A stretch of 64,000 nucleotides of DNA from an uncultured Elusimicrobia bacterium (lineage in GTDB: Bacteria > Elusimicrobiota > Elusimicrobia > F11), in NCBI GenBank assembly GCA_964405835.1, contig CAYOPN010000002.1:24571-88570 (forward strand), written 5' to 3'. Shown piece by piece: positions 11,064-33,365 of the stretch. The notes beneath the pieces were generated by a model. The model had not been told where the DNA came from. It worked only from the letters and a program-made list of their open reading frames with translations, and searched no databases. Position 1 is the first letter of the stretch. Every line of letters begins with the position of its first letter. Made by a program: the position numbers and the translations under genes.

Positions 11064-12734
11064 TCACGTATTTTTTTGTTCTTTAACGTATCTCAGCAGG
11101 AGGCCTAAAAATAACCAAAATGGAACACCCAAGAACGGTCCTTCTAGCGGGACGTTGAAAGCAGCGATCACCATATACCAAACCCAAAAGGCCAGCGCGA
11201 AAACGGCAATCATGTCCTTTCGACGGCAATGTCCCCATAACCTGGAAACAAAAACAAGGTTCAGCAGGAGAAATCCCCCCAAACCAAGAAGCCCCATTCG
11301 AAACAAAATTGCGAGATGAGAATTATGGAAATCGATTCCATACCAATGCTGGGACACAATCCGGCTTATTTCCTCCTGGGTCATGACAAACGGCGGCCTT
11401 GGAACGACATCGTCGGAGGGGTTCCGATATGCGTTTGAAATTCGATTCTTAAACTCATACGTTTTTTTCATTTCGTCTATAGCACGGATGCGTCGTTCCG
11501 GATCTTGAAAGGGATTCATACTCCAGGCAATCAACGGTTCGTCAAATCCAATGCCGATAAAAATATTCCTTTCAAGGACCTGCTCGAGTCCATCGAACCA
11601 GACGGTCAACCGCCATGAAACATTTCCGGCCTCGACATTGGGAGCCAGCGCTTTTAAGATTTTCTCCCTGAACCGTTTAAAGTGAACCATGTGAAGTTTT
11701 TCGGGCGTGAAATCCACGGGCGCCACAGCAGAAGCCGGCACATCCTTTTGCGTGACCATGGCCGGCGAAACCGTTTGAGTGATTTGAACTGGCTCAACTT
11801 TTACCGGTGCAGGAATGACAGGGTCACTTTTTACCGGAGCTGGACCTGGAATTGGAACCACTGGATCGGCGCTCGGCGTCACCACAGGCTCGGAGGGCGG
11901 GGCCAATTTGACGGCAGGGGTTGCCGAAGAAACGATGCGTTGGATACGAAAAAGACGTGTGTATCGGCCAAAACCTTGTGGCTCGCCAAAAATCATCACG
12001 GAAATGCCGGTTGTCACAATGAACAGAAGCCCAAACAGCATTGCATGTTTCAAGAAGTGTTTGGGAACACCGCATACCAAGCCAATAAACAGGATCGTCA
12101 GCGATGTCAACGCTATGGCAATAATCCCAGAGCGAATGGTCGTATAGATGACAAATGTCGCAGCGATGGCACCAATGCTCCGTACCACCCAAACAAAACG
12201 GTCATCATGTTGGGTAAAACCGTATAAGGCCACGTACGCAAACGCAGTCAGCGAAGCAACCCCTGCCAACGCATAACGCGGCCACCATGAAACGGAAAAA
12301 TAGGTAAGTCCGCTCGCAACCATGCATACGGTGCCGCCAACAAACATCCAGCACAATAATTTTCGAACCGTTTTTTGATCGGGCACCAACGCGTATGAGA
12401 GAAAGGCAAACAATGAGTAATAACAAAGGGCGGACCGTTTTAACGTATCGAGCACGTCGGGCCCTTTTTGGCTTAGCACTGGAAACAACGCAATCAAACC
12501 GGCAGACCAATACACGCCGAAAGCCGCATAAAGCCACCGGTCTCGCTTCTCCGGACGCCATTTCCCCCTAACAACCTGGACTGCAAACAGGGCCGTCATG
12601 ACAAGAAGCACAAACTCCGAGACAAACAGAGGGACGGGTCCAACCCAGAAAAAATTATAAGTGAACCCTTTATTGAACCCCAAAAGAAGCGCCAAATAAG
12701 CGCCTAACAGATGCGTGAAGAGCAGGACAATCAT
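11064..12734 (-). CDS. O-antigen ligase/polymerase-family membrane protein with an inserted Pro/Val-rich linker
   Basis: N-terminal multi-span region, then the low-complexity linker PAVKLAPPSEPVVTPSADPVVPIPGPAPVKSDPVIPAPVKVEPV, a soluble segment, and a C-terminal FHNSHLAILFRMGLLGLGGF motif resembling the Wzy_C HN-x-yL...G core. ATGA overlap at 12731. Confidence 0.55.
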   Translation of the reverse strand: MIVLLFTHLLGAYLALLLGFNKGFTYNFFWVGPVPLFVSEFVLLVMTALFAVQVVRGKWRPEKRDRWLYAAFGVYWSAGLIALFPVLSQKGPDVLDTLKRSALCYYSLFAFLSYALVPDQKTVRKLLCWMFVGGTVCMVASGLTYFSVSWWPRYALAGVASLTAFAYVALYGFTQHDDRFVWVVRSIGAIAATFVIYTTIRSGIIAIALTSLTILFIGLVCGVPKHFLKHAMLFGLLFIVTTGISVMIFGEPQGFGRYTRLFRIQRIVSSATPAVKLAPPSEPVVTPSADPVVPIPGPAPVKSDPVIPAPVKVEPVQITQTVSPAMVTQKDVPASAVAPVDFTPEKLHMVHFKRFREKILKALAPNVEAGNVSWRLTVWFDGLEQVLERNIFIGIGFDEPLIAWSMNPFQDPERRIRAIDEMKKTYEFKNRISNAYRNPSDDVVPRPPFVMTQEEISRIVSQHWYGIDFHNSHLAILFRMGLLGLGGFLLLNLVFVSRLWGHCRRKDMIAVFALAFWVWYMVIAAFNVPLEGPFLGVPFWLFLGLLLRYVKEQKNT

Positions 12735-16087: not shown

Positions 16088-16803
16088 GATTTCCAAGGGG
16101 CTCCTTTTTTCCAGAGTTTGTTCAAATGGTCCCGCTCGCGCGGCGTGTCCATGCATTGCCAGAAACCGTCGTGCTTGAAGGCGCGCAACTGGCCCGCCTT
16201 GGCCACGCGCTGCAACGCGCCGAATTCCAAATCGCAATCGGACGCGGACGAAAGATACTTCAAAAACTCCCGGCGGAACACAAAGAAACCGCCGTTGATG
16301 TGGCCCGTGCTGAGCTGGGGTTTCTCATCAAACTTCAACACACGGTCACCGGCCAGTTCAATCTCGCCAAAACGCGACGGCGGTCGCACCGCGGTCACGG
16401 TACCCAGTTTGCCGTGGCGCACGTGGTATTCATGGAGCTTCTTGAGATTTGAATTGATCACGCCATCACCGTAGGTCACGTGGAAATGGGGCGCCGTAAG
16501 AAATTTTTCAACGCGTTTAAGCCGGCCGCCTTTTAACGTGCCGGTGCCCGTGTTTACAAAATCGATCTTCCAATGCTTCTCGCCTGAGAAATATTTCCGG
16601 ATGTAATTGCCTTTGAAACCAAGGGGCAAAACAAAATGGCGAAAACCGTGCGCGTCATACGTCTTCATGATGTGCCAAAGGATTGGTTTGCCCCCCACTT
16701 CAACCATGGGTTTGGGGCGGATGTCTCCGTCCTCGCGCATACGCGTTCCCTTGCCACCGCACAAAATAACGACCGGGACCGCGTTCAACATGAGCTTGTT
16801 CAT
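16081..16803 (-). CDS. rfbF: Glucose-1-phosphate cytidylyltransferase
   Basis: [47 protein letters not shown]...TYGDGV...INGGFFVF are RfbF-typical motifs. ATGA overlap with the upstream stop (16800). Confidence 0.85.
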
Positions 16804-17762
16804 GGTTGGACGCCCGCGAGACAGCGGATCCACACGCGATCATCGCCATATTCACGGCAGTGGTACGGGTCTGGGGCCGAAAGCGGATCGGGATGGCCGG
16901 CGTTTTTTTTGGGTTTCAGAAAATTTTTAATCCGGCGGAGTTGGTCGCGCATTGGCAGTTTATCGATCCAACCGTTTCGCGCGCGAATGGCGTCATTCAT
17001 TTCCCGTTGCTTGGTCCAAGGCAAACCGCACGTTTCCAGGTACAGCGAGCGGAAACCGCCGGCTGCCAGCACCTTCGACAGTGATTTTGGTTCAAAGAAC
17101 AACACGTGCGGTTCGAGGTCGAACTTAAACCGGTAGTCCCCGTTCGGCACTTCAATGAACAAATAACCTTCGGGTTTCAAATAGGCCTTCAAATTTTTTA
17201 AATATTCCACGGGAGCATTTATGTGCTCAAAGACGTGGCTGAGAATGATCAAATCGAATTTCTTGTTGGCAAATTCCTCGAGCTCTGCCTTCCAAACTAT
17301 ACCGTGCCGTTCAAGTGATTGTTGGGCTTTTTGGTCCGGCTCTACCGCGAAGCATTGGACTGTTGCGGGAAGAAGCTTGACCAGATAACTCTCGAGCACG
17401 CCATAGCCGGCCCCGATATCGAGCACGTCGATCTGTTTACCGAACTTAAGCCGGTCCTTAATGAAATCCACGCGCGCCTGCGCTTGATGGTGATAGGTCG
17501 GGATATCAAACGGTGTTTTGTCCGCCACGTGGCCCCAGAAGGTCCCGCTGTTGTAATAGGCGTTCAACATGTCGGTGGACGCCATCGGGTACATATAGAC
17601 AAGGCCGCAATCGACACAACGGGCGACCGTGCGACTCAGGAACAATTGGTTGTGCGCCGGATACGTCATCACATGTTGATGGGCGCGTTGGCGGCAAAGC
17701 GGGCATTCAAGCCCGCGGACAGTGTTCCCTCCGGCCGGTTTGGTGATTGTCGCTTCAGGCAT
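16800..17762 (-). CDS. Class I SAM-dependent methyltransferase with N-terminal zinc ribbon
   Basis: Start at the internal ATG 17762 (MPEATITKP). CPLCRQ...CVDCGLVYMYP ribbon, VLDIGAGYGVLE motif I, FDLIILSHVFEHI, LKPEGYLFIEVP. Confidence 0.75.
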   Translation of the reverse strand: MPEATITKPAGGNTVRGLECPLCRQRAHQHVMTYPAHNQLFLSRTVARCVDCGLVYMYPMASTDMLNAYYNSGTFWGHVADKTPFDIPTYHHQAQARVDFIKDRLKFGKQIDVLDIGAGYGVLESYLVKLLPATVQCFAVEPDQKAQQSLERHGIVWKAELEEFANKKFDLIILSHVFEHINAPVEYLKNLKAYLKPEGYLFIEVPNGDYRFKFDLEPHVLFFEPKSLSKVLAAGGFRSLYLETCGLPWTKQREMNDAIRARNGWIDKLPMRDQLRRIKNFLKPKKNAGHPDPLSAPDPYHCREYGDDRVWIRCLAGVQP

Positions 17763-18705
17763 ACACCGTCCCTTTTTTACTTGCTTTGAAAAATTCCACG
17801 ATGTTTTGTGCAGCGCGCAATTCCATGGCCACGCGCGAAGCATTGGTCAGCGTGGCCACGTGCGGCGTGCAAATCACATTGGAACGGCCCATGAGCGGAC
17901 CTTTGTAGGGTTCGTTCTCGTAAACGTCGAGCGCCGCGCCGCCGAGCCGTTTTTCATCCAGCGCTTTCACCAAAGCATTTTCGTCGATCATATAGCCGCG
18001 CGCGGTGTTCACGAGGAACGCCCCTTGCTTCATCTTGGCGAACTCAACCGTGCTCATCAAATGACCGTCCGATGGCTGGCGCGATGCGTGGAGCGACACC
18101 ACGTCCGATTCTGCGAGAAGCGCGTTGAAATCTTTCAGTTCGACGCCTTCAGGGACATCCGTTTTCTTCAACACCGGGTCCGACACCAGCACATGCGCGC
18201 CGAACGGAGAGAGCAAGCGCGCCACGGCGCGACCAATGCGGCCAAAACCAACCAGGCCGACCGTCCATTCGGAAAGCAATACGCCGGTATGCTTCTTCCA
18301 TTGGGAGGACTGGGAATCAAGCACGTGGGATGGAATGTTCCGCGCAAGCGCCAGGATCATCGCCACCGTCATCTCGGCCACCGGCTGAATCACCTCTTCG
18401 ATCGTTACCAGAACGGACACTCCATGTTGTTTGGCCGCAGCTAGATCAACCGCATCGGTCCCAATACCACAACGGCTCACGCATTTGAGCTCCGGAAGTG
18501 CCGCGAACAACGCCGCGTCGTATGGTTCGACGCCGGCCAGCACCGCATCGACGCATTTGAGCTCCGCTTCCATTTCTTCGCGTTTAAGCCGGTGGCCCAG
18601 CTTGTTTAAGTGGACCTCCATACCGGCGCGTTCCATGGCTTTGAGCGGTTCCTGCGACGTTTCGCAGAATTGCTGCAGCGCAACGTAGACCACCGGTCTC
18701 TTCAT
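17755..18705 (-). CDS. D-isomer-specific 2-hydroxyacid dehydrogenase (phosphoglycerate/glycerate dehydrogenase-like)
   Basis: TVGLVGFGRIGRAVARLL NAD motif, LLAESDVVSLH, FLVNTARG, AALDVYENEP...NVICTPHVA. Full-length D-2-HADH pattern. ATGA overlap at 18702. Confidence 0.8.
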   Translation of the reverse strand: MKRPVVYVALQQFCETSQEPLKAMERAGMEVHLNKLGHRLKREEMEAELKCVDAVLAGVEPYDAALFAALPELKCVSRCGIGTDAVDLAAAKQHGVSVLVTIEEVIQPVAEMTVAMILALARNIPSHVLDSQSSQWKKHTGVLLSEWTVGLVGFGRIGRAVARLLSPFGAHVLVSDPVLKKTDVPEGVELKDFNALLAESDVVSLHASRQPSDGHLMSTVEFAKMKQGAFLVNTARGYMIDENALVKALDEKRLGGAALDVYENEPYKGPLMGRSNVICTPHVATLTNASRVAMELRAAQNIVEFFKASKKGTVYA

Positions 18706-19475
18706 GCTGCGCTGCCCGTCTTGCTCAAGATATTTTCGAGCACGGCCAATTGCCGCTGGTCTTCTTTCAAATATTTTTCAACGAGCTCCACTTCGCGCGG
18801 CTCGTTGATGCCCGGGTAACCTTTGCTGAACGGCACACCTTGGATCATTACATCGTGCTCAAGTGTGCGGTTCTGATCGAGAGATTCTTGTATTTCGAGC
18901 GGCGTCCGGCTGAAAGCGCCGACTTGTTTGAGGAACTTCTTTTCAAACGCGAGGATCCCAAGCACAATCCGCACCGTCTCCGGCTTCATGTGCGAAAAGA
19001 TCCGCGAGCAAAACATGAGCCGGTCCGATGCCGACACCACGCATTTCACAATTGACTTGTCGCTGAGCTCGGCCGCGTCCGATATCGGGGCCGTCGCGTT
19101 CCATACGGGGCCCGCCGGATTGGACTTGATGGCGGCGACCAGGTTCTTCAAATCGTCTGGGAGGATTAGGATCTCGTCGCCTTGCACGTTCACCACATGC
19201 GTGCAATCGAGAGCATCGGCGGCCTCCGCTACACGGTCGGTGGCGCCAGGATGATTGGGATTGGTCATGATCACGCGGCCACCGAAACCTTCAATCGCGT
19301 CCTTCACTTCTTTATCGCAGGCCGCCACGACCACATCCGAGAAAACCCCCGCAAGGACCGCGCGGCGACGGACATGTTCGACCATAGGGATCCCGCGAAA
19401 CGGAAGCAACGGTTTCCCCGGAAAACGCGTGGAAGCCATGCGCGCAGGAATGATGGCGGCGACTTTTACGCTCAT
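18702..19475 (-). CDS. kdsB: 3-deoxy-manno-octulosonate cytidylyltransferase-like (KdsB/KpsU family)
   Basis: Start at the internal ATG 19475 (MSVKVAAIIPARMASTRFPGKPL). HPGATDRVAEA, VNVQGDEI and a LDQNRTLEH-type region parallel E. coli KdsB motifs as I recall them. The true substrate is unknown. ATGA overlap at 19472. Confidence 0.75.
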   Translation of the reverse strand: MSVKVAAIIPARMASTRFPGKPLLPFRGIPMVEHVRRRAVLAGVFSDVVVAACDKEVKDAIEGFGGRVIMTNPNHPGATDRVAEAADALDCTHVVNVQGDEILILPDDLKNLVAAIKSNPAGPVWNATAPISDAAELSDKSIVKCVVSASDRLMFCSRIFSHMKPETVRIVLGILAFEKKFLKQVGAFSRTPLEIQESLDQNRTLEHDVMIQGVPFSKGYPGINEPREVELVEKYLKEDQRQLAVLENILSKTGSAA

Positions 19476-20185
19476 TGCGGCAAAGTTCCGCAATCGACGT
19501 TCACGCATTGCCCCGTGATCGCCGAAGCGGCCGGACTTGCCAGAAAAAACACGGCCTCCGCCACTTCACGTTCGGTCGGCAAACGGCCAAGCGCCGTTTG
19601 GGTCTTTGCAAAATTCTTAAGGTACGCGGCCACGTTCGCCCCAAGCGGCGGCGCCGACTTTTCTTTCAGTGACTCCAAAATTGTTTTCGTGGCCACATAG
19701 ACCGGACACACGGCATTTACGCGAATACCTTTCGGTCCAAGTTCCTTTGCAAGTGACTGCGTGATGCCGTTCACAGCGAATTTTGACGCGCAATAGGCGC
19801 TGTTGTTGGCACTGCCGCGTTTGCCGGCCAGGCTTGACACGTTCACGATCGCGCCTCCCTTCTTCATCACGGAAGCAGCTGCCGCGCAGCCCCACATCGT
19901 TCCGAGCACATTGGTCTCATAAACCTGCGCCATAAAAGATTCATCAATGTCGGCGACCGGTTTCCAACGCGATACGCCCGCGCAATTCACCACCACATCG
20001 AGGCGTCCGTGCTTTTTCCGCACGGATTCGGCGAACGACATCACATCACGGCGCCGGCGCACATCACCGCCGTTCGAGCGCGCGTACACCTCCACTTTTG
20101 CGCCGCGGGACGAAAAAAGTTTCGCAATGGCGAGGCCGATGCCGCGTGTGCCGCCGGTGACGATGACGACGGGCGCCTTGATCAT
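19472..20185 (-). CDS. Short-chain dehydrogenase/reductase (classical SDR)
   Basis: Start at the internal ATG 20185 (MIKAPVVIVTGGTRGIGLAIA). NCAG, SSLAG...YCASK catalytic motif. ATGA overlap at 20182. Confidence 0.8.
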   Translation of the reverse strand: MIKAPVVIVTGGTRGIGLAIAKLFSSRGAKVEVYARSNGGDVRRRRDVMSFAESVRKKHGRLDVVVNCAGVSRWKPVADIDESFMAQVYETNVLGTMWGCAAAASVMKKGGAIVNVSSLAGKRGSANNSAYCASKFAVNGITQSLAKELGPKGIRVNAVCPVYVATKTILESLKEKSAPPLGANVAAYLKNFAKTQTALGRLPTEREVAEAVFFLASPAASAITGQCVNVDCGTLPQ

Positions 20186-20943
20186 ATGGTCATCGCGGTG
20201 AACCCGCCATCCACGGCAACGATGGAACCGGTCACGAAGCTCGCGGCGTCCGAGACGAGCCACAACACCGCGCCCACCAACTCCTCCGGCTTTCCATAAC
20301 GGCCCATCGGCGTGTGCCCGAGGATCTTGGCCTCACGGTCTTTGTCGATAAAATTTTTCATGCTCCATTCGGTCGGGAAAAAACCGGGCCGCAGCGCGTT
20401 CACGCGCACGCCTTGCGTCGCCCATTCGCGCCCCAGGTTCTGCGTGATGCTCGAGATGCCCGCTTTCGCCACCGAATACACAAACGCTTTCGAAAGCGGC
20501 GGACCCGAGGAGGCCGACGCAAAGTTCACAATGCTGCCGCTTCTCTGTTTCAACATGGTTTTACCGAAGACCTGGCAGGCGAGCAGCGTCGCGGTCACGT
20601 GGCTGTCGAAAATGCGGTGGACTTCTTCTTCGGTGATATCAAAGAACGGCGTCGGCGCGTTGACGCCCGCGCCGTTCAAGAGCACGTCGACGCGGCCGTG
20701 CTTCTTCAAAATTTCGTCGTGGCAACGCTGCAGGTCGGCCTTCTTGGTGACGTCACACGTCATGTCGGTCACCGCGACCTTTGACTTGTCGAGCGCGCTG
20801 GCCTTGATGTCAACGATCACGACCCTCATGCCCGATTCCGCCATGGCTTGCGCGATCGCCGAGCAGAGAAACCCGGCGCCGCCGACCACGACGGCCACTT
20901 TGTCTTTCAAATTAAAACGCTGGTCGATGGTGACGTGACTCAC
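20182..20943 (-). CDS. Short-chain dehydrogenase/reductase (classical SDR)
   Basis: KVAVVVGGAGFLCSAIAQAM, NGAG, FASASS...YSVAK. I propose the GTG at 20943 (VSHVTIDQ), a GTGA overlap with the upstream stop. The track extension overlaps the HAD gene. Confidence 0.75.
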   Translation of the reverse strand: MSHVTIDQRFNLKDKVAVVVGGAGFLCSAIAQAMAESGMRVVIVDIKASALDKSKVAVTDMTCDVTKKADLQRCHDEILKKHGRVDVLLNGAGVNAPTPFFDITEEEVHRIFDSHVTATLLACQVFGKTMLKQRSGSIVNFASASSGPPLSKAFVYSVAKAGISSITQNLGREWATQGVRVNALRPGFFPTEWSMKNFIDKDREAKILGHTPMGRYGKPEELVGAVLWLVSDAASFVTGSIVAVDGGFTAMTI

Positions 20944-21566
20944 GCGGCCTCCTTTAAAGAAACAAAATCTTTTATGAAGGGGCCGGAGGCCAGCGCCGCG
21001 TTCGCGACACCGATGAATGGACAACCCGCCGCCGCGGCGGAGCGCGCATCTTCGGCGGTGTCACCGAAAAAAACCAATTCGTAGCCGGCCAATCCCAGTC
21101 TTCCCCGGGCGGCGGTGAGCCATTCCGCCTTGTTCACCGGCGCCCCTTGGATCAGATCAAAATGGGGCGCCCAGTTACGTCCATTCAGAATCTCGGAAAG
21201 GTACTCGTGCGGCGTGCTGGAGAGCAGCGCGGTCTTGCGCGCGCTTTTCATTTGCAGCACAAAATCCAGCGCGCCCGGGATTTCGGGCGCCGCGATGATG
21301 GCCTTGGTGGTGGCCGCCGCGTACCGGGCCGTCAAATCTTCCTCTATGGCGGCCGTGTACGGTTTTTTCAGAATTGTCTCGTACACATAACGGAACTTCA
21401 CTTTGCGCGTGACATGGTGGTTGTTGTGGCAATAGTCGCGGATCTCGTTTGCGTGGGACGGAAAATCCGCGAAACAGAGATCGAACGCGCGGTATTTGAT
21501 GGGATTGGAATCCACGAGCGTTCCATCGAAATCAAAAATGACCAGCTTGACGTTATCCGGCAGCAA
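20940..21566 (-). CDS. HAD-superfamily phosphatase (HAD-IA, phosphoglycolate-phosphatase-like)
   Basis: Motif I LVIFDFDGTLVDSNP, motif II LLSSTP, motif IV VFFGDTAEDARSA. Start uncertain: TTG at 21566 puts the DxDGT motif about 10 residues from the N-terminus, whereas the track start 21629 overlaps the aldolase by 61 nt. Confidence 0.7.
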   Translation of the reverse strand: MLPDNVKLVIFDFDGTLVDSNPIKYRAFDLCFADFPSHANEIRDYCHNNHHVTRKVKFRYVYETILKKPYTAAIEEDLTARYAAATTKAIIAAPEIPGALDFVLQMKSARKTALLSSTPHEYLSEILNGRNWAPHFDLIQGAPVNKAEWLTAARGRLGLAGYELVFFGDTAEDARSAAAAGCPFIGVANAALASGPFIKDFVSLKEAA

Positions 21567-21568
21567 GA

Positions 21569-22348
21569 TTAAACGCGGACCTGTCTGACGGTTTTGAGCA
21601 ACTCGTTGGTGCGCTCCCCCCACTTCCACAACAGGAACACATCGGACGACAAGACCACGAACGTGTAACCGGCCGTAAGCGCTTCGGCAACGTTTTTCTC
21701 ATTTGGATCAACAACTTGCGTGCCGCAGGCCTTGCCGTGTTTCTCACAGGCCTTGACCACCCGTTCGCAAGCCGCGGCCACTTCGGGATGAAACAGTTGC
21801 CCCGGAACTCCCATGGAACCGGACAAATCGTAAGGCCCCACCATCACGCCGTCGATTTCCTTGAGTGAAAGAATGGAATCAATCGCTTCAACACCCTGGA
21901 CCGATTCGATCTGCACAATCAACGTGGACTGTTCATTCCAGGACTTGGTGTAGGAATCAAAATTGTGGCCGTATCCCTGAGCGCGACCCACGCCAAAGCT
22001 GCGTTTCCCGACCGGCGAATATTTCGACCATTCAATGATCTTCTGTGCTTCTTCTTTCGAGTTGACCATGGGGACGATGAGACCGTCCGCGCCGGAATCG
22101 AGCACGCGCTTGATCTGTTCGGCATTGTGGGAAGAGATGCGCGGCAGGCAAGGAATGCCGGCGGCCTGGCTGGTGGCGATGATGCCTTGCGCCTGTTCCA
22201 AACTGATGGTGCTGTGCTCAAGATCGATGCCAATGAAATCAACGCCCGCTTTTGTGAACGCTTCGGTGATGGAAAGATGCCCCAGCGACGTCCACGCGCC
22301 GAAAACCGATGAACGATTTTTTATTTTGGATCGGAAGTCAGTTCGCAA
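21569..22348 (-). CDS. HpcH/HpaI-family class II (metal-dependent) pyruvate aldolase
   Basis: SVFGAWTSLGHLSITEAFTKAGVDFIGIDLEHS...LIVPMVNSKEEAQKII...IVQIESVQGVEAIDSIL...DGVMVGPYDLSGSMG aligns along its length with HpaI/RhmA-type aldolases as I recall them. TTG start preceded by an AAGGGAG Shine-Dalgarno. Confidence 0.8.
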   Translation of the reverse strand: MRTDFRSKIKNRSSVFGAWTSLGHLSITEAFTKAGVDFIGIDLEHSTISLEQAQGIIATSQAAGIPCLPRISSHNAEQIKRVLDSGADGLIVPMVNSKEEAQKIIEWSKYSPVGKRSFGVGRAQGYGHNFDSYTKSWNEQSTLIVQIESVQGVEAIDSILSLKEIDGVMVGPYDLSGSMGVPGQLFHPEVAAACERVVKACEKHGKACGTQVVDPNEKNVAEALTAGYTFVVLSSDVFLLWKWGERTNELLKTVRQVRV

Positions 22349-22360
22349 AGATTATCTCCC

Positions 22361-23332
22361 TTACCACAAGATGTCGGACGGCCCCCAACTCTTGGGAGCC
22401 ACCGCATTGGAAAATCGCTGAAACCAGCGCGCCAGCCAATAGCGGCCGCGGACATTCGGAAGTTTCCCCAACAGACCCGGGCCGGCCAGAATGTGGCGGC
22501 GAATGTCGCGGGCTTCGGTTTCGGAAAAAAGTCCTTTTTCCTTTCCGATTTGCGCGAGCTCGGCCACATAATCATTTTTCTCGTACAAAATGGCGATCAA
22601 AATATTTTTCAACAACCGCTGCTTTGACAGCGATCCGTTGGCAGCGGAAAGGTCTTTAAAATAAAGCGCGTCTCCGAAAATAAGCTGACCGCGGTGATTC
22701 GCGGTCTTTTGCCCGCCTTCCCGTTTCCACCAGCAACGTTTCAAATCGAACAGCGAAAAACCTTTGGCGCGCAGCGCCTCGTCAATGTGCGAGAAGAGCG
22801 GCTGCCCTTTATAAAGTTCGGCGAATTCGACTTCCACCTCGATGCCGAGCAGCTTGTCGCACGACGCCAGGGCCCCTTTCAACACGTCCACTTCGCCGCC
22901 CTGCACGTCCAACTTCATGAAATCGGGAGAGACCTTCAACCCAGCGAGCACATTGTCCAGCGTGTCCACCGGCACCTCGACGGTCCTCTGAATGTCCCAC
23001 CGGCCGGAATCCGGAAAACGGGAGAGGAACGCGCGGTTGGGTTCGAGCATCGAGGAACATCCCGGCGCGCGCGTGAGGTTTAGTTTTCGCTGACCCGGCC
23101 GGTCCGCCAACGCCGTGGCCACAAAAGTTTGCCCGCCTTTGGCCGCGCTGTTGAGGCGGCTGCATTCGGCGGCATCCGGTTCGAAACCGACGACCCGCAA
23201 ATCAATACCCAAAGCGGCCCACCGGTCGTGGATGCCGGCCCGCGCGCCGACATCAATAAGAGTTATGGGATCGTTCTCGACCGCCGAGCGGAACAAAGGG
23301 GTTTGAAGCAAGGTCTTAAGGAGAGAAGACAT
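22361..23332 (-). CDS. FkbM-family methyltransferase
   Basis: Start moved to the ATG at 23332 (MSSLLKTLL), a TAATG 1-nt overlap. LIDVGARAGIHDRW, VVGFEPDAAEC, DFMKLDVQGGEVDVLKGA are FkbM-family signatures. Confidence 0.75.
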   Translation of the reverse strand: MSSLLKTLLQTPLFRSAVENDPITLIDVGARAGIHDRWAALGIDLRVVGFEPDAAECSRLNSAAKGGQTFVATALADRPGQRKLNLTRAPGCSSMLEPNRAFLSRFPDSGRWDIQRTVEVPVDTLDNVLAGLKVSPDFMKLDVQGGEVDVLKGALASCDKLLGIEVEVEFAELYKGQPLFSHIDEALRAKGFSLFDLKRCWWKREGGQKTANHRGQLIFGDALYFKDLSAANGSLSKQRLLKNILIAILYEKNDYVAELAQIGKEKGLFSETEARDIRRHILAGPGLLGKLPNVRGRYWLARWFQRFSNAVAPKSWGPSDILW

Positions 23333-24126
23333 TAGCGTGCGAACTCCGGTTTTGTTTCCCGTTCCCAAATTTCCGTGTTGTATTGGCGGTCCGGTTTTTG
23401 AAACACGTTCGACAGGCCGGACCGGGCCAGCAGTTCGCGCACGCGCGCGTCTTTTTGATCAAGGGAATCCATTTCAACGAGCAACGATTTCATGGCGGGG
23501 CCCGCGACGGTATTCACCGCTCCCTGCAATACATCGAGTTCGGTCCCGTCCACGTCGATTTTCAGCGCGGTCGGTTTGATGCCCGTTGCTTCCACGAAAT
23601 CGTCCAGCTTCATGGCCCAAATTCCTTCCTGATACACGACCGGCTGGCCGTTGTGCGTTATCGCCATGGGAGAACGCGATTCCGAATGGAGCGCCGCTCC
23701 GGGCGTCAGGTCCTGAACGTGCAGATGGCTAATCCCGGTCACGGCGCTGAGGCCGATTGAATAAACATCGATCACATCTTGAAGATGGTTCGCGGCCACG
23801 TTGTCCCGCAACAAATGAAGGTTTGAATATTCGGGTTCAAAGCAGACCACGCGAAGCCCCGGATGCCGGAGCGCCGCGTACAACGAGTAAACGCCGACAT
23901 TGGCGCCGACATCAAACAACACGTCGGTAGGCCCCAGCGATTTGTCGATCCAATCAAGCGTTTCTGGTTCTTTTGTGTTGAACGAGCTCCAACGGTAACT
24001 GGTGATGGGGTTGTCGCAAGCGAGCGTAAAGTGAAGGCCGCGCGAATGCACCGTACGGCGCGGCGTCAGCGAATGGATTAATTTCCAGCGAAGCTGGCCC
24101 AGTTTTCCGGAAAGGCGTGAGAGCAT
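23332..24126 (-). CDS. FkbM-family methyltransferase
   Basis: Start at the internal ATG 24126 (MLSRLSGKL), a TGATG 1-nt overlap. LFDVGANVGVYSLYAA, VVCFEPEYSNLHLL, ALKIDVDGTELDVLQGA. Confidence 0.75.
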   Translation of the reverse strand: MLSRLSGKLGQLRWKLIHSLTPRRTVHSRGLHFTLACDNPITSYRWSSFNTKEPETLDWIDKSLGPTDVLFDVGANVGVYSLYAALRHPGLRVVCFEPEYSNLHLLRDNVAANHLQDVIDVYSIGLSAVTGISHLHVQDLTPGAALHSESRSPMAITHNGQPVVYQEGIWAMKLDDFVEATGIKPTALKIDVDGTELDVLQGAVNTVAGPAMKSLLVEMDSLDQKDARVRELLARSGLSNVFQKPDRQYNTEIWERETKPEFAR

Positions 24127-24755
24127 CAGCGCGCCGGCGCCGCGGCGGCCGGGACCGAGGTCTCCCATTTGTTTCCTTGCGCCATCAAACGCGGATCGGA
24201 AACGATGCCGTGCCAGACGACGCCTTGGAACGCTTCGGAATGCGGCGTGACGTTGTTGGGGTTGACCGTGGGCACCACGACCACAATGTCGCCGCGCTGC
24301 TTGGTGTATCCGCCATCGCGGCCGACAATGCCCAAGACCGTCATACCGCGGGTCTTGGCTTCGTCGATCGCGGAAACCAAATTGGGGCTGATGTTCTTTT
24401 CGCGATTGCCGCCGCCCACGGAAAAAATCAGGACCGCGTCTTTCGGGCCGCCCTTGCTGACCTTGAGCCAGGCGGCGAATACCGTGTCCCAGCCTTCGTC
24501 GTTCGTGCGCGCCGTGAGCTCGGAAACGTTATCGGTCGGCGCGTAGGCCTCGATGCCGGCCAGTTTTCGAAAATCGTTCACGGCGTGGCCGCAATTGCCG
24601 GCGCTGCCGCCGACGCCAAGCAGGAACAGCCGGCCGCCGTCTTCGCGCAGCTTGACCAGACGCTGGACCATCCGGTCGATCGCTTGGCGGTCCAACCCGC
24701 GCGCCACCTGCTCCACTTCGGACAAGTACGTCTCAATGAAATTTGTTTTTTCCAT
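24126..24755 (-). CDS. SIS-domain sugar-phosphate isomerase, GmhA (sedoheptulose-7-phosphate isomerase)-like
   Basis: RLFLLGVGGSAGNCGHAVNDFRK ... DAVLIFSVGGG ... GMTVLGIVGRDGG. Single-SIS protein of GmhA size and layout. Confidence 0.7.
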   Translation of the reverse strand: MEKTNFIETYLSEVEQVARGLDRQAIDRMVQRLVKLREDGGRLFLLGVGGSAGNCGHAVNDFRKLAGIEAYAPTDNVSELTARTNDEGWDTVFAAWLKVSKGGPKDAVLIFSVGGGNREKNISPNLVSAIDEAKTRGMTVLGIVGRDGGYTKQRGDIVVVVPTVNPNNVTPHSEAFQGVVWHGIVSDPRLMAQGNKWETSVPAAAAPAR

Positions 24756-24764
24756 TCCGGTCCC

Positions 24765-25496
24765 TCAGGCCTTGCTCATCTGGCGCAAAACGAACCCGGC
24801 TTTCTTCGCGTCGTTGTAAAACATCTTCACGGTGTCCAAAGAAAATTCGCCGAGGTCTTTTCCGTTCAGCGACAGCTTTTCAATCAAATCATCGGTGGCG
24901 GTGATGATATGGCAGCCGGCGGAGTCCGCCTGATAGATATTCAACGTCTCGCGCGGGCTTGCCCAAAGGACCTTGGCCTTGGGAAATGGCGCGAAGTCCT
25001 TTACGGCTTTTTGCATGACGGGCAATGGATCAACGCCGGTGTCGGCGATGCGTCCGGCGAAAATGGAAACAATGATATCGTCCTGCGGCTTGAGCGCCGC
25101 GCGGAGCCCGTCCAATTGCGCTTGCGTAAGAATGGCTGTAACGTTCAGCTTCACCCCTTTATCAAACAACCGCCGGATCAACGGCACCGACGATTCGCCG
25201 CGTGTGTTCGTGATCGGAATTTTCACGTTCACGTTCTCGCCCCAGGTGGCAATCAACGCCGCCTGCTCCTCCATCTCGGCGAACTCATCAGAAAAAACCT
25301 CGAATGAAATCGGCAGGTCCTTCACTTCGGCCAGCACCGTTTTCGCGAACTGCTCGTAATCGCTGATCCCCGCCTTCGCCATGAGCGTGGGGTTGGTGGT
25401 GAACCCTTTCACGAATCCCTGGCGATACCGCTTTAAGATGGTCTCCACATTGGCGCCATCTCCAAACACGGCGATTTTTAATTTGGGCAAAGACAT
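24765..25496 (-). CDS. Transaldolase-family protein (short TalC/fructose-6-phosphate-aldolase type)
   Basis: GFTTNPTLM, the catalytic-lysine region NVNVKIPIT, and VSIFAGRIAD correspond to the GVTTNPS / VKVP / NRID motifs of type 3B transaldolase/FSA enzymes. Confidence 0.8.
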   Translation of the reverse strand: MSLPKLKIAVFGDGANVETILKRYRQGFVKGFTTNPTLMAKAGISDYEQFAKTVLAEVKDLPISFEVFSDEFAEMEEQAALIATWGENVNVKIPITNTRGESSVPLIRRLFDKGVKLNVTAILTQAQLDGLRAALKPQDDIIVSIFAGRIADTGVDPLPVMQKAVKDFAPFPKAKVLWASPRETLNIYQADSAGCHIITATDDLIEKLSLNGKDLGEFSLDTVKMFYNDAKKAGFVLRQMSKA

Positions 25497-25507: not shown

Positions 25508-26461
25508 TTAGCGTTTCTTCGCGACGATCCGGGCAAACGAACTGAGCCCGGCTTTTTGCAAAAACGATTGGAATTCTTTTTTCACATCGGCCCCGGACGC
25601 CATGAGTTCGCGTTCAAATGACGAGAGGGACAGGTCGGCGTTCTGGTCCACGTGCGCCTGCACAATTTCGACATCGAGCACGCCCGGTGTGCTTACTTCC
25701 TGCAGCGCAAAGCCGTTCTTTTCCAGAAGCAGCTCGAGTCCTTTCAACGTGAAACAATTGGTGCGGTCCGGCGGACAAAAATAAAGATTGTTGAAGCCGA
25801 GTAGGGTCATATCAAAACCCGAAGCGACCAGCGCGGTGATAAACAACAACCCGCCCGGCGCCAAGCGTTCCGCCACGGCCGTGAGCAATTTCTGAGGGTC
25901 GTTCACGTGGTCCAAATTCTCAAGCATCACCGCGGCCTGCGCCGCCGGCCCTTTCGGCGCTTTACCGGCAACCAAATCCATTTCTCCCAGGGAACGCACA
26001 TCACGGAACGCTTCGCTCAAAAGCGCCGTGAACCGGCTTTGGGGCGGCGCCACTTCCAAGACCGACGGCTTGTCGACGCCTTGGATCTGTAGCGTGCGCT
26101 GGATCCAATCCAATTTCGGCAAATACACGTTCTCGGTGCGGCTGCCGGCCACGCCCGCGTGAAACCCATCGGGAGACTGACGGCGGCGCGTTACCTCCGA
26201 CAAGACCGCCTCCCACGCGGCGGCGTCGGGCAAATTGAGCAGGAAAAGACTTCCGGTCGCAGGGCAACGCCCGTATTCCAGTCCTTCCACGGCCCCCGCG
26301 GGGACCAAGGGACTGCCGAGAGGAGAGAGCCCGCGCTTGGCCGACTTTGCGGCCAGCGCTTTCTTGGTTGTTTCAATGCAAAACTGCCGGTACGCGCGCA
26401 ACCCATCCAGCGCTTTCACCGACGATAATGGGAACGCAACGTTGGTCTCGGTCAAAATCAT
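25508..26461 (-). CDS. Putative SAM-dependent methyltransferase
   Basis: C-terminal half has VLEVAPPQSRF, AAVMLENLDHVNDPQKLL and LAPGGLLFITALV (class I methyltransferase post-I/III motifs). The N-terminal part is unassigned. Confidence 0.55.
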   Translation of the reverse strand: MILTETNVAFPLSSVKALDGLRAYRQFCIETTKKALAAKSAKRGLSPLGSPLVPAGAVEGLEYGRCPATGSLFLLNLPDAAAWEAVLSEVTRRRQSPDGFHAGVAGSRTENVYLPKLDWIQRTLQIQGVDKPSVLEVAPPQSRFTALLSEAFRDVRSLGEMDLVAGKAPKGPAAQAAVMLENLDHVNDPQKLLTAVAERLAPGGLLFITALVASGFDMTLLGFNNLYFCPPDRTNCFTLKGLELLLEKNGFALQEVSTPGVLDVEIVQAHVDQNADLSLSSFERELMASGADVKKEFQSFLQKAGLSSFARIVAKKR

Positions 26462-26462
26462 A

Positions 26463-27479
26463 TTACTCCCTCCCCACAGACAGCACGTCCCGCTTCGCGT
26501 ACACGTCGCGGATGATTTCCATCACTTGCCGCGCTTCGTCCAGCGTCCCGTGTGTCGCCGGCCGCTTCTCTTTAATCGCCGCCAGGAATTCGTTCACTTC
26601 CTTGTCCCAGGACTCGTCGCGGTCAAAATGGATGATTTCCTCGCGCGGGTTGCCGAGCGCGAACGCCTCGTCTTCAAATTGGCGTTTTCCGATGACGAGT
26701 TGCTCGCGGCCGTAGCTGCCCGTGCGAGAAAGCAGGCCCGAAGCGATCAGATAGCCGTTCTCGCAGCCGATCTCAAAACGGAATGTGTGCTTCCACAGCG
26801 TGGCGGAAGAATGAAGAAAGGCGGGAACGCCTTTTTCGGAGCGGAGCAGCAGGAACGCGTTGTCTTCGACGCCGCACTTCCAGAACGAATCGCTGAGCAC
26901 ACCGTCGGTGACCTGGCAGGGGCCGAGAAAATTCAAAAAGATGTCGAGCATGTGAATGCCTTGATCAAGCAGGATGCCGCCGCCAGAAACCTGTTTGTCG
27001 TTGCGCCAGCTCTGCCGGTAATGCACGCCCCCCGACTTACCGTAAGTGCCCTTCATGTAAAGAATTTGGCCGAGGCTGCCCCCTTTAAGGAGCGACTTGG
27101 CGGTCACAACGGAAGGATGAAGCCGGTGATTAAATCCAAAAACGACGGTGTGGTTGGGGGTCGCTGCGGCCGCGTCCGCAATGCGGGAAAAATCATCCCA
27201 ATTGCGGCCCGGCGGTTTTTCACAGAAAACGTGGCGGCAATTCTTAATCGCTTCCACGCAGAGGTCGGAGGTGACGTTGTTGGGAGTGCAGATAAAAGCG
27301 GCGTCAAACTGGTCCCAAGGGATCCGTTCGCTGGTTGAAAGGGGCGTTCCAACAATGTCTTTCTGATGGGGGTCCAGCGCCGGGTCGTAGATCTTCACGT
27401 CGCTCACGTCCGGGTGTTGTTTAAGGACTTTGGCGCGGATCCGTCCCATATAGCCGTAACCAATTACAATGCATCGCAT
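26463..27479 (-). CDS. Gfo/Idh/MocA-family NAD(P)-dependent oxidoreductase
   Basis: MRCIVIGYGYMGRIRAKVL Rossmann start, VFCEKPP (EKP motif), and a C-terminal alpha/beta domain of the expected size. Confidence 0.8.
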   Translation of the reverse strand: MRCIVIGYGYMGRIRAKVLKQHPDVSDVKIYDPALDPHQKDIVGTPLSTSERIPWDQFDAAFICTPNNVTSDLCVEAIKNCRHVFCEKPPGRNWDDFSRIADAAAATPNHTVVFGFNHRLHPSVVTAKSLLKGGSLGQILYMKGTYGKSGGVHYRQSWRNDKQVSGGGILLDQGIHMLDIFLNFLGPCQVTDGVLSDSFWKCGVEDNAFLLLRSEKGVPAFLHSSATLWKHTFRFEIGCENGYLIASGLLSRTGSYGREQLVIGKRQFEDEAFALGNPREEIIHFDRDESWDKEVNEFLAAIKEKRPATHGTLDEARQVMEIIRDVYAKRDVLSVGRE

Positions 27480-27491
27480 AAGGGCGGGATT

Positions 27492-29060
27492 CTACAATAG
27501 GAAACGGGCAAATTTACCGACGGAATCGGCGGTCATCGGCTCAACCATGGCATCCACATCTCGGCAGGCCGCGGCCCAATCCGGACGCAGGGAAGCCCCG
27601 TCCGAACCGCGAAAAACGTTCAATATGCGCTCAAACTCCTCCGGCGCGCCGGCATGTTCCTTCCATTTGGCGATCAGATAGAGCGGATCGACAACCGGTC
27701 CGGGCTCCCCCGCCCAATAGATGGGCTTGACCCCATCCAACACCGAATAAATCGCGGCCGAAGAGCCGCGGTAAACCAGCGCCGAACACTCCACAAAATC
27801 ATCGTGAATGGCGGGGCGCGTGGACAGATGGATATTTTGAAATTCGTCTTTCTTTCGTTTGAGGAAAGGCGCCGCTTTTTCGTACGGAAGGACCGGGTGG
27901 CAGCGGAAAACAAACTCATGATCCGGCAAACGGGCCGCCAGGTCCATCGCCAAATCAAACAGCAACACCATCTCTTTTAAGATCCCTTCCGGGAGAACCA
28001 GCACCCGCTTCTTCGCAGGACGTGGAGCGGTCGGCTCCGGCGCTTGCGCGGGCCGCCGATGCGAACCGAGCACCAACAAATTTGATTGGAAGGGACGGAA
28101 ACCGGCATCCATGCGCTGACGTGTCCCCTCTCCGGTGCACAAAACGATTTCGGGCGCAGCGATATCCCCTTCCACCGATTGCGGGTTTAACAACGCCAAA
28201 CAATGCGGCAACAAAACCGTGTGTTGATATCCCGCCAACTTCACGGCAGAATCGGCTGCTTTGGCGCCTTTCCAAAAAACCTTTTCCCAAGGCTGCCCCT
28301 CGAACAACGTGACCACGCTGCGCGGCCGCCAGGTTTGAACGGCGCGTTTCGCAATCCAATAAAACATGTGGTTCTTGGTGGTGTAGGGCCGCAGCACGTC
28401 CAGCACCGCCATCGCGGCCACGCGTCGAAGGAGTCCGCTGGATTGGCGCGCCAATCGACGCAAACGCAGAGCACAACCGAATTGCTGGAGGACGCTCAAA
28501 AGCGGCGCCCACCATGGAATCAACAGGAACTCCGGAAAGCGCAGCTTATTCGGATTCCCCACGCAGGCCCCGGCAAAAAGCAGCGCGGTCCAACCGACCT
28601 TCAATTTGGCGGACAAACTGCCGTCATCGGACTTGGCGTCGCCGACCAGAAAAAGCGCCCGCACATTGTTTTCGGCGAGGAGGTCCCTCAGGGGTCCAAA
28701 ATAAAAATCCGATGCCTTGCTCAATCCTTCCCGGCCGGGCACCCATGATTTAATGAGAATGTCCGGTTTCCCGTATTTGTACCGGTCCCCTATAAAAATG
28801 ATCGAACAAAAAAGCAGCAACAACGCATCGTAGACAGCGGAGAAAAGGCCAATGGAGGTCTTCAGCAAACAAGTGAAGATACCCGGAACATTGACGGGCG
28901 CTTGTTTGGATTCCTCTTCCAGCAAACGAAGATGTTCCGGCGGCACGGAATGGCGCGGATGAACAAGGCTCGTGGCGAGCAGCACGCGGTCGCGGACCGC
29001 GCGTCTCAATTCAAGGACAGCGTCAGCGAGCGACGCGTAGAGTTGGGAGGACGTTTCCAT
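27492..29060 (-). CDS. Uncharacterised protein, possibly GT-B-like surface-carbohydrate transferase
   Basis: 522 aa with no recognisable catalytic motif. The C-terminal half (RVLVLPEGILKE...FVFRCHPV...ALVYRGSSAAIYSVLDGVKPIY) resembles the nucleotide-sugar-binding half of GT-B/capsule-type transferases. ATG at 29060 overlaps the upstream gene by 38 nt. Confidence 0.35.
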   Translation of the reverse strand: METSSQLYASLADAVLELRRAVRDRVLLATSLVHPRHSVPPEHLRLLEEESKQAPVNVPGIFTCLLKTSIGLFSAVYDALLLLFCSIIFIGDRYKYGKPDILIKSWVPGREGLSKASDFYFGPLRDLLAENNVRALFLVGDAKSDDGSLSAKLKVGWTALLFAGACVGNPNKLRFPEFLLIPWWAPLLSVLQQFGCALRLRRLARQSSGLLRRVAAMAVLDVLRPYTTKNHMFYWIAKRAVQTWRPRSVVTLFEGQPWEKVFWKGAKAADSAVKLAGYQHTVLLPHCLALLNPQSVEGDIAAPEIVLCTGEGTRQRMDAGFRPFQSNLLVLGSHRRPAQAPEPTAPRPAKKRVLVLPEGILKEMVLLFDLAMDLAARLPDHEFVFRCHPVLPYEKAAPFLKRKKDEFQNIHLSTRPAIHDDFVECSALVYRGSSAAIYSVLDGVKPIYWAGEPGPVVDPLYLIAKWKEHAGAPEEFERILNVFRGSDGASLRPDWAAACRDVDAMVEPMTADSVGKFARFLL

Positions 29061-33291: not shown

Positions 33292-33335
33292 GGGCGTGTC
33301 TCTATCAAAAATTGGCTACGGCGGCTATCAGCTAA

Positions 33336-33362
33336 CTTGAGGTCACAAACTGTGACCTCAAG
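33336..33362. repeat. Perfect hairpin/palindrome P1: CTTGAGGTCACA-aac-TGTGACCTCAAG
   Basis: 12-nt arms with a 3-nt loop, ending 3 nt before the ORF6N stop codon (33366-33368), with the T5 run that follows on the plus strand extending into that stop codon. Its 11-nt arm core is identical to palindrome P2 inside the ORF6N gene. Confidence 0.9.
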
Positions 33363-33365
33363 TTT

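Follow-up and report, generated by a model that had tools for sequence, protein, structure and literature searches.

A pyruvate aldolase linked to a KdsB-like cytidylyltransferase: a candidate route to an activated ulosonic acid in an Elusimicrobia glycan locus

Introduction

How could a bacterium make a sugar acid for activation with cytidine monophosphate (CMP) when no synthase of the usual kind is encoded alongside the activating enzyme? This question is raised by seven consecutive minus-strand genes in a 64,000-nucleotide stretch of DNA from an uncultured Elusimicrobia bacterium (contig CAYOPN010000002.1 of assembly GCA_964405835.1, positions 24,571 to 88,570), hereafter called the window. 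The genes combine an HpcH/HpaI pyruvate aldolase with a cytidylyltransferase that resembles KdsB. [quoted passage not shown] An original prediction, made from the letters of the DNA, proposed that the seven genes build and activate an ulosonic acid by a pyruvate-aldolase route.

Here, we examined this proposal by profile, structure, and synteny comparisons. The seven genes are not self-contained: they belong to a conserved module of about ten genes, of which they constitute the downstream two-thirds. We consider with moderate confidence that the product of this module is a CMP-activated 2-ulosonic acid, assembled from pyruvate and a sugar phosphate that a transaldolase delivers, without a KdsA/NeuB synthase. 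Both the class of product and the family of the cytidylyltransferase have been described before, and it is the way of making the carbon skeleton that would be new; no pathway that joins an HpcH or other pyruvate aldolase with a cytidylyltransferase in glycan biosynthesis was found in the literature searched. If the proposal is true, synthase-based surveys overlook an entire class of acidic surface sugars, chiefly from candidate phyla for which metagenomes are the only source of information. Biocatalysis would also gain a natural set of aldolase, phosphatase, and cytidylyltransferase for preparing activated ulosonic acids from pyruvate, and two unannotated families of GT-B glycosyltransferase-fold proteins a likely function.

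The aldolase and the cytidylyltransferase belong to a conserved module

All seven predicted open reading frames (ORFs) are present in the sequence (Table 1), and Pfam assignments agree with the domain identities that had been given to their products (E-values of 1.5e-32 for HpcH_HpaI, 2.3e-17 for HAD, 1.3e-52 and 2.5e-51 for adh_short_C2 in the two short-chain dehydrogenases/reductases SDR1 and SDR2, 2.6e-36 for CTP_transf_3, 1.3e-52 for 2-Hacid_dh_C, and 1.3e-19 for Methyltransf_23). The cassette had been said to contain no PEP-dependent synthase; indeed, neither a KdsA-type domain (DAHP_synth_1) nor a NeuB domain was detected between 16.8 and 33.3 kb, and no KdsA-type domain was found in any of the window ORFs scanned.

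Synteny was analyzed in 8 loci via their gene tables and in the best 80 of at least 547 metagenome-contig relatives obtained by a pattern scan. These 80 loci, in which the aldolase is 56-66% identical, were searched with the window proteins. For counts, we used the loci whose sequence extends 5 kb or more beyond the aldolase: 31 on its downstream side and 24 on its upstream side. On the downstream side, the KdsB-like cytidylyltransferase and SDR1 were each found in 29 of the 31 loci, SDR2 in 28, the 2-hydroxyacid dehydrogenase in 26, and the HAD phosphatase in 25. The adjacency of aldolase and cytidylyltransferase on which the original prediction relied is therefore conserved, with examples on contigs of Elusimicrobia, Margulisiibacteriota, Omnitrophota, and Planctomycetia. 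A counterpart of the last gene of the cassette, a methyltransferase, occurred in only 13 of 31 loci. Upstream of the aldolase, a SIS-type isomerase (22/24), a transaldolase (21/24), a MocA-type oxidoreductase (20/24), and a second methyltransferase (20/24) recurred. No NeuB was encoded within 10 kb of the module on either side (0/31 downstream, 0/24 upstream), which leaves the cytidylyltransferase of these loci without a PEP-dependent partner nearby.

The same order of neighbors was found on seven contigs (L001, L003, L005, L007, L016, L017, and L018), which are assigned to Elusimicrobia, Margulisiibacteriota, Omnitrophota, and unassigned groundwater bacteria. It runs from a Pfam-less protein of 500-620 residues through MocA, Methyltransf_23, SIS_2, transaldolase, HpcH, HAD, SDR, SDR, and CTP_transf_3 to 2-Hacid_dh. 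An eighth contig (L008, Planctomycetia) stops at the aldolase, and only the upstream half is seen there. This arrangement of neighbors is far from chance and recurs in dozens of unrelated contigs. The 120 best matches to the aldolase itself are 60-100% identical and its close orthologue clade 56-82%; one relative, at 82%, is from an Elusimicrobia metagenome-assembled genome. A single-protein pattern search of genome contigs returned two close relatives.

De novo clustering of the ORFs of 27 long loci did not reveal any additional core family; no kinase, aminotransferase, dehydratase, or acyl-activating enzyme was found in the core of these loci. Accessory families comprised extra methyltransferases, FkbM proteins, hexapeptide acyltransferases, radical S-adenosylmethionine (SAM) enzymes with a B12-binding domain, and glycosyltransferases. 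The B12-binding radical-SAM enzymes accompanied the module in 9 of the 27 long loci (including L005, L017, and L019), and the hexapeptide-repeat acyltransferases in 10 (including L072). The accessory genes suggest variable radical-SAM methylation and O-acylation of the product.

The cassette is a slice of a longer gene array

All start/stop overlaps that had been described for the cassette could be read at the gene junctions. Four-nucleotide overlaps are present at 20940-20943 (GTGA) and at 20182-20185, 19472-19475, and 18702-18705 (all ATGA), while the 2-hydroxyacid dehydrogenase and methyltransferase genes overlap by 8 nucleotides (17755-17762). Between the aldolase stop codon (TAA, 21569) and the HAD start codon (TTG, 21566) lies a 2-nucleotide spacer.

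The original prediction also regarded the aldolase gene as the first of a transcription unit with its own Shine-Dalgarno sequence. A GGGAG sequence is indeed present just before its start codon (TTG, 22348), but the status of first gene was ruled out by the conserved genes upstream, present in 20-22 of 24 loci, and by the 12-nucleotide gap 5' of the aldolase, which abuts an FkbM methyltransferase gene at its stop codon (22361) and leaves no room for a promoter. A scan for promoters and terminators between 15.5 and 34.5 kb found 7 promoter-like sites where 7.3 were expected, none of which marks a boundary at the aldolase. At the other end, the methyltransferase stop codon (16800) overlaps, as ATGA, with the ATG (16803) of a gene for an RfbF-like nucleotidyltransferase. 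As the overlaps run past 16800 and a coding gene abuts the cassette upstream, the seven genes are a slice of a longer co-directional array, which occupies the minus strand between about 33.3 kb and a point below 1 kb of the window.

Table 1. Genes of the module and its immediate surroundings in the window, in the direction of transcription.
Feature	Coordinates	Strand	Basis
Divergent GT-B-fold protein, ~711-723 residues; candidate glycosyltransferase	29023-31194	-	No Pfam family; structure model
Divergent GT-B-fold protein, 522 residues; candidate transferase for the CMP-sugar of the module	27492-29060	-	No Pfam family; structure model
GFO/IDH/MocA nicotinamide-dependent (NAD(P)) oxidoreductase; core	26463-27479	-	Pfam GFO_IDH_MocA N- and C-terminal domains
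Methyltransf_23 SAM methyltransferase; core	25508-26461	-	Pfam
Transaldolase	24765-25496	-	TIGR02134
GmhA-like SIS_2 sugar-phosphate isomerase; core	24126-24755	-	Pfam SIS_2
Two FkbM-family methyltransferases; accessory tailoring	22361-23368, 23332-24168	-	Pfam Methyltransf_21
HpcH/HpaI class II metal-dependent pyruvate aldolase; putative C-C bond-forming step	21569-22348	-	PF03328
HAD-superfamily phosphatase with cap domain, phosphoglycolate/sugar-phosphatase-like; putative dephosphorylation	20940-21566	-	Pfam Hydrolase and HAD_2
SDR oxidoreductase 1; core	20182-20943	-	adh_short_C2
SDR oxidoreductase 2; core	19472-20185	-	adh_short_C2
KdsB/KpsU-like cytidylyltransferase with altered sugar pocket; putative CMP activation of an ulosonic acid	18702-19475	-	CTP_transf_3
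D-2-hydroxyacid dehydrogenase, short, phosphoglycerate-dehydrogenase-like; core	17755-18705	-	2-Hacid_dh_C
Methyltransf_23 methyltransferase; accessory, in a minority of loci	16800-17762	-	Pfam

The aldolase retains its catalytic residues and the cytidylyltransferase has altered sugar-side motifs

The aldolase scored 113.2 bits against PF03328, above the gathering cutoff of 25, and GarL, YfaU, and HpaI could be aligned with it from end to end. The catalytic His, Arg, Glu, and Asp, of which the last two are metal ligands, are kept: the motifs DLEH, PRI, QIES, and GPYDLS line up with those of 1dxe, 2vws, 4b5s, and 3qz6, and the residues themselves (H45, R70, E148, and D174 in its own numbering) are invariant in 32 members of the clade, as are others including S73-H74-N75, Y126, W241, and W243. 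It scored below the NCBIfam equivalog cutoffs for HpaI (153.4 versus 368.8), GarL (147.3 versus 406.75), and RhmA (125.6 versus 441). We regard the protein as a class II pyruvate aldolase, predicted to be functional, from a clade of its own.

The closest solved relative of the cytidylyltransferase is KpsU of Escherichia coli, the capsule CMP-Kdo synthetase (1gq9, 1.3e-34), while its scores fall below all KdsB cutoffs (NF009905, 207.9 versus 255; NF003952, 192.1 versus 193; NF003950, 162.1 versus 234; NF003948, 135.8 versus 281; TIGR00466, 114.9 versus 155.2). The CMP-Kdo-synthetase motifs that had been attributed to it are present in part. The loop for cytidine triphosphate (CTP; pattern PARxxSxRxPGKP, IPARMASTRFPGKPL in the window, which fits IPARxxSxRxPGKPL) and the QGDE motif with the first Mg-ligand Asp (QGDEI in the window) are kept, and both are retained in nearly all of 26 clade members. 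His181 of the motif K/R-H-V/I-G-I-Y-A-Y, however, which is found in 3/3 aligned KdsB/KpsU references, occurs in 0/26 clade members; the position is occupied by Gln, Thr, Leu, or Val, and by Leu in the window. The KdsB motif LEQLR has become LDQNR or xDxxR across the clade. At the GVDTP motif, the clade splits into a GVDR(P/E) form that keeps the Asp and a G(I/V)NEP form, to which the window protein belongs (GINEP, Asn followed by Glu). The Asp at this second Mg-A ligand position (D219 in Aquifex KdsB) is described as strictly conserved in KdsB (PMC3149649). We take the enzyme to be KdsB-like with what its motifs indicate is a remodelled sugar pocket. The alteration of sugar-side motifs throughout the clade fits a substrate other than Kdo.

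The other enzymes of the cassette are less specific in their family matches. The HAD phosphatase contains a DFDGT motif and matches NCBIfam families of phosphoglycolate and sugar phosphatases weakly. SDR1 is closest to sugar-acid dehydrogenases: its top match is D-mannonate oxidoreductase (241 bits, cutoff 281), and gluconate 5-dehydrogenase and KduD, of which the latter acts on a 2-keto-3-deoxy acid, also match. For the 2-hydroxyacid dehydrogenase, the top match is phosphoglycerate dehydrogenase (PGDH), at 215 bits below a cutoff of 454.

Upstream genes provide a candidate source of the sugar phosphate

The original prediction named the KpsF encoded elsewhere in the window as a possible source of the sugar phosphate. 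That protein is a genuine KpsF/KdsD homologue, but KpsF was not found near the module in any of the 24 other loci, and on this count it was rejected as the precursor source. The conserved pair of transaldolase and SIS protein is a better candidate.

The window transaldolase passed the equivalog cutoff of TIGR02134 (Staphylococcus type; 325.9 bits versus 281.95). When aligned with 1vpx and 3s0c, it keeps the Schiff-base Lys (NVKIPIT) and a Phe (SIFAGR); a Phe at this position marks transaldolases, and a Tyr fructose-6-phosphate aldolase (FSA). The identity of the window enzyme to the fsa/talC-like transaldolase typical of the module (e.g., L001 9312-10004) is only 33%, while the window proteins neighboring it are 55-90% identical to their counterparts in other loci. 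The module-type enzyme is encoded beside the aldolase in 21/24 other loci, while the window copy is separated from it by the SIS gene and the two FkbM genes. This is an apparent non-orthologous gene replacement in which, judging from the retained residues, transaldolase function was kept, which argues that the function is needed.

The best PDB and NCBIfam relatives of the SIS protein are phosphoheptose isomerases (~1e-14), and its score against the GmhA equivalog TIGR00441 was 54.7, versus a cutoff of 209.45. In its phosphate loop, SVGGGN and an insertion of 6 residues take the place of the STSG of GmhA. From this family assignment, it would isomerize a ketose phosphate to an aldose phosphate. 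The MocA protein, 90% identical to its copy in L001, weakly matched inositol 2-dehydrogenase and levoglucosan dehydrogenase in NCBIfam, and may carry out the oxidation of a sugar hydroxyl or a ketoreduction during tailoring. Both FkbM genes sit between the isomerase and the aldolase, a position in which only L001 and a few further loci have such genes.

Two divergent GT-B proteins precede the module

Neither of the two large proteins encoded at the start of this region matched a Pfam family at E<=1, nor did sequence or profile searches against the PDB return anything for them; their GT-B fold is assigned from structure prediction only. For the 522-residue protein, the AlphaFold2 model (predicted local distance difference test score, pLDDT, 93.1) matched the GT-B glycosyltransferases SnogD and CalG1, as well as TagF, in Foldseek. 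The model of the ~711-723-residue protein (pLDDT 88.5) gave UDP-GlcNAc 2-epimerases, TagF, and other GT-B glycosyltransferases as top matches, with template-modelling (TM) scores of ~0.5-0.6 when normalized to the target. Homologues of the larger protein are encoded upstream of the module in L001, L003, and L005, as well as in 6/27 long loci. In 16 or more of these 27, the MocA gene has a relative of the 522-residue protein encoded directly upstream.

Seven residues of the 522-residue protein do not vary among 25 homologues (R386, H388, P389, Y430, R431, G432, and S434) and form the motifs Arg-x-His-Pro and Tyr-Arg-Gly-x-Ser. An HP motif is common to beta-Kdo and CMP-sialic-acid transferases of the GT-B fold; the retaining beta-Kdo transferases (GT99/GT107: WbbB, KpsC, and KpsS) combine it with a QXXXD nucleophile motif (PMC10148158). 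In the 522-residue protein, H388-P389 is invariant and no QxxxD is (the invariant Q279 is followed by H-T-V), and no beta-Kdo glycosyltransferase was among its top 50 fold matches. For the modelled protein as the transferase for the CMP-sugar, the HP motif is suggestive only.

One homologue, P0140, has a HAD domain at its N-terminus, with the motif LDRDGT typical of enzymes of the GmhB/histidinol-phosphatase type. We considered this fusion as a link between the GT-B protein and the HAD phosphatase of the module, and rejected it: the HAD domain of P0140 is related to the latter at the superfamily level only and is not its orthologue.

A proposed pathway

In the pathway that we propose, the transaldolase would transfer a dihydroxyacetone unit onto an aldose phosphate to yield a ketose phosphate, which the GmhA-like SIS enzyme would convert to an aldose phosphate. 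The HpcH aldolase would then add the enolate of pyruvate, or possibly of oxaloacetate or hydroxypyruvate as an alternative donor, to the aldehyde. The resulting 4-hydroxy-2-oxo acid would be a 3-deoxy-2-ulosonic acid with a terminal phosphate. Removal of this phosphate by the HAD phosphatase would draw the reversible aldol step forward, as would the CTP-dependent step. The two SDRs, the MocA protein, and the methyltransferases could epimerize, oxidize, and O-methylate the sugar, and the KdsB-like enzyme would join it to CMP. The adjacent divergent GT-B protein with its His-Pro motif would probably transfer it to the glycan.

What results would be a CMP-ulosonic acid of C8 to C11, Kdo- or Kdn-like, tailored and O-methylated, for a surface polysaccharide. 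Given the absence of an aminotransferase and an N-acetyltransferase from the core, it is probably a non-amino polyhydroxy acid. A more specific version holds that a heptose or octose phosphate and pyruvate give a heavily O-methylated CMP-C10/C11 3-deoxy-2-ulosonic acid by a PEP-independent route, widespread in Elusimicrobiota, Omnitrophota, Margulisiibacteriota, and Planctomycetota and served by a GT-B family of its own; this we put forward tentatively and regard as rather doubtful.

Several features have precedents. The CMP-Kdo pathway has the same sequence of isomerase, addition of a C3 unit to give a 2-keto acid phosphate, HAD phosphatase, and CTP activation, in which KdsD would correspond to the SIS_2 protein, KdsA to HpcH, KdsC to the capped HAD, and KdsB to the KdsB-like enzyme. 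The last of these is a true homologue; the isomerase, synthase, and phosphatase are non-orthologous. The C-C bond-forming enzyme of the module is a class II pyruvate aldolase (PF03328) rather than the PEP-dependent KdsA, its isomerase is a GmhA-like SIS_2 protein without the CBS domains of KdsD/KpsF, and its HAD, unlike KdsC, has a cap domain and resembles phosphoglycolate phosphatase. The module further adds a transaldolase, four oxidoreductases, and a methyltransferase to the Kdo scheme, and the pocket motifs of its cytidylyltransferase are altered. With the NeuB pathways (N-acetylneuraminic, Kdn, legionaminic, and pseudaminic acid), it shares a CMP-activated alpha-keto sugar acid destined for surface glycans, but it differs from them in having no NeuB nearby and no aminotransferase or N-acetyltransferase in the core.

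A transaldolase and isomerase dedicated to a higher sugar are known from lincomycin biosynthesis, where LmbR and the SIS isomerase LmbN lead to an octose 8-phosphate (PMC5854111). Likened by this described role, the module too pairs a transaldolase with a GmhA-like isomerase for a higher aldose phosphate, and a chain longer than C9 is conceivable on this precedent. In the lincomycin pathway, the octose phosphate next meets a kinase, a phosphatase, and a guanylyltransferase; in the module, a pyruvate aldolase and a CMP-transferase would take over the sugar phosphate instead. Finally, the aldolase shares its fold and catalytic residues with the catabolic enzymes HpaI, GarL, and RhmA/YfaU, whose substrates include 2-keto-3-deoxy sugar acids. 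It differs from catabolic HpcH proteins in its context, which is glycan biosynthesis and not the catabolism of aromatics or sugar acids, and in scores far below those of the equivalogs.

Weighing the proposal against alternatives

Of the original proposal of a pyruvate-aldolase route, the conserved linkage, the absence of NeuB, and the intact catalytic residues of the aldolase stood, while KpsF as precursor source and the aldolase-first unit did not. That the module lies in a Wzx/Wzy-type glycan locus, among genes for a flippase, Wzy_C proteins, and glycosyltransferases, also favors the proposal. Several points weigh against it. The scheme as a whole rests on homology and synteny, from which all of its chemistry is deduced. 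Pyruvate aldol additions are reversible and HpcH enzymes typically catabolic, so that a biosynthetic role requires later steps that pull the reaction. It is hard to place the 2-hydroxyacid dehydrogenase in the scheme, as reduction at C2 would destroy the anomeric center that the cytidylyltransferase needs. In that cytidylyltransferase, the second Mg-A ligand is Asn in the window protein and Asp in only part of the clade. The SIS protein is distantly related to GmhA and differs in its phosphate loop. As for the last step, an HP dipeptide is weak evidence, and the GT-B models match sialyl- and Kdo-transferases no better than generic GT-B enzymes.

The four-step logic of the module is exactly that of the Kdo pathway, and what the module makes could be ordinary CMP-Kdo or CMP-Kdn, by an alternative route or one reserved for the capsule. 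In that case, arabinose-5-phosphate or mannose-6-phosphate would come from the SIS protein, the aldolase would add pyruvate to form Kdo-8-phosphate or Kdn-9-phosphate, and the HAD and KpsU-like enzymes would finish the product, with the oxidoreductases and methyltransferases acting later on the polymer or on other sugars. The kinship of the cytidylyltransferase to the capsule enzyme KpsU, its score almost at the cutoff of one KdsB model (192.1 versus 193), and the genuine KpsF/KdsD gene in the window are in line with this. However, KpsF does not accompany the module elsewhere, the supply of ribulose-5-phosphate or fructose-6-phosphate needs no dedicated transaldolase, and the cytidylyltransferase clade never keeps the reference His and has a changed LEQLR motif. 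Moreover, the four oxidoreductases and the methyltransferase are conserved equally well and are translationally coupled to the pathway enzymes. We consider this explanation unlikely. In a variant of our own model, the donor is hydroxypyruvate, which the PGDH-like dehydrogenase and the HAD phosphatase would form from 3-phosphoglycerate; the product would be a 3-hydroxylated 2-ulosonic acid resembling D-glycero-D-talo-oct-2-ulosonic acid (Ko). This variant has the merit of giving the 2-hydroxyacid dehydrogenase, whose best family match is phosphoglycerate dehydrogenase, a role. The HAD is nearest to phosphoglycolate-type small-molecule phosphatases and not to KdsC, an HpcH-family "hydroxyketoacid aldolase" (6r62) is among the solved structures that match the aldolase, and the changed sugar pocket of the cytidylyltransferase could fit a 3-OH. 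Yet the sugar phosphate from the transaldolase and isomerase would be left without a phosphatase, the family scores of both the dehydrogenase and the HAD are far under curated cutoffs, and the sequences do not discriminate between pyruvate and hydroxypyruvate as donor, which makes this variant, in our view, distinctly improbable.

The alternative that the original prediction itself had offered, a hydroxy-acid side chain (glycerate- or lactate-like, or by extension 3-deoxyhexonate-like; maybe O-methylated) for the NeuB-derived nonulosonic acids of the window, has a possible chemical parallel. In a structure cited in PMC13439194, the flagellin sugar of Treponema denticola bears a 2-methoxy-4,5,6-trihydroxyhexanoyl group. 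Pyruvate and glyceraldehyde or its 3-phosphate, after dephosphorylation, reduction at C2, and O-methylation, would give exactly that acyl group as cited there. The window has two NeuB genes and a legionaminic-acid-type pathway, and the window, like L001 and L003, encodes a DegT aminotransferase upstream of the module. However, the metagenome loci carry the module without NeuB within 10 kb, and the cytidylyltransferase, always carried along, would be left without a role, as would the transaldolase and the SIS isomerase. An acyl-activating or acyl-transferring enzyme is likewise lacking in the core, as no ligase, ATP-grasp enzyme, or N-acyltransferase was found there in the 27 long loci. On these counts the side-chain explanation does not hold up well, and we give it little chance. 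The CMP-ulosonic acid route is the one we favor.

The wider glycan locus

The window as a whole is a large surface-glycan locus. Downstream of the cassette, it encodes a CDP-hexose-type pathway, glycosyltransferases of the GT2, GT4, and WecG types, Wzy_C proteins, and a flippase; upstream, beyond the two Pfam-less proteins, lie genes for the DegT aminotransferase and a 4,6-dehydratase. A legionaminic-acid-type set consists of NeuB (46309-47409), a PseF-like cytidylyltransferase, an epimerase-acetyltransferase fusion, and a PtmE-like enzyme, and a second NeuB gene is located at 62776-63984.

Including the KdsB-like enzyme, the window encodes four CTP_transf_3 cytidylyltransferases (those other than the KdsB-like enzyme, together with the two NeuB genes, in the regions 46309-48155, 55155-57329, 58176-59594, and 62776-63984). 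Among these are unusual fusions: one joins CTP_transf_3 to a class-III aminotransferase (724 residues), another to a 3'-5' exoribonuclease-like domain resembling Rv2179c (472 residues). The SugarBase preprint describes CMP-activated C10 ulosonic acids in Magnetospirillum, which are N-acetylated and resemble pseudaminic or legionaminic acid; the passages searched name no gene cluster for these sugars, and no link to the module is claimed.

At the far end of the array (2650-4529), a gene for a PdxA-family dehydrogenase (1.2e-96) is translationally coupled to that of the genuine KpsF/KdsD arabinose-5-phosphate isomerase. Since no KpsF accompanies the module in the other loci, these two genes may belong to another sugar-acid pathway.

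Seven more ORFs of 318-578 residues without a Pfam match at E<=1e-5 lie among the glycosyltransferase and methyltransferase genes, in the regions 38327-41537 (+), 42530-43717 (-), 7858-9594 (-), 11064-12734 (-), and 61511-62791 (-). For 7858-9594 and 11064-12734, there was no Pfam match even at E<=1. These ORFs may encode more unclassified glycan enzymes or Wzy-like membrane proteins.

A pair of genes for a polysaccharide deacetylase and a formyltransferase (36588-38308, +) is divergent from the array, and the same pair occurs upstream of the module in L017 (1-1678). Such a combination is also mentioned in the SugarBase preprint for a nonulosonic-acid cluster of Ca. Kuenenia.

Finally, the only sizeable intergenic gap of the array, 650 bp between the end of the dehydratase gene (33291) and the start of the PtmE-like gene (33943), contains a hairpin with a perfect 14-bp stem at 33334-33364 (AACTTGAGGTCACA...TGTGACCTCAAGTT), followed by a T-run. 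This gap may be a transcription boundary.

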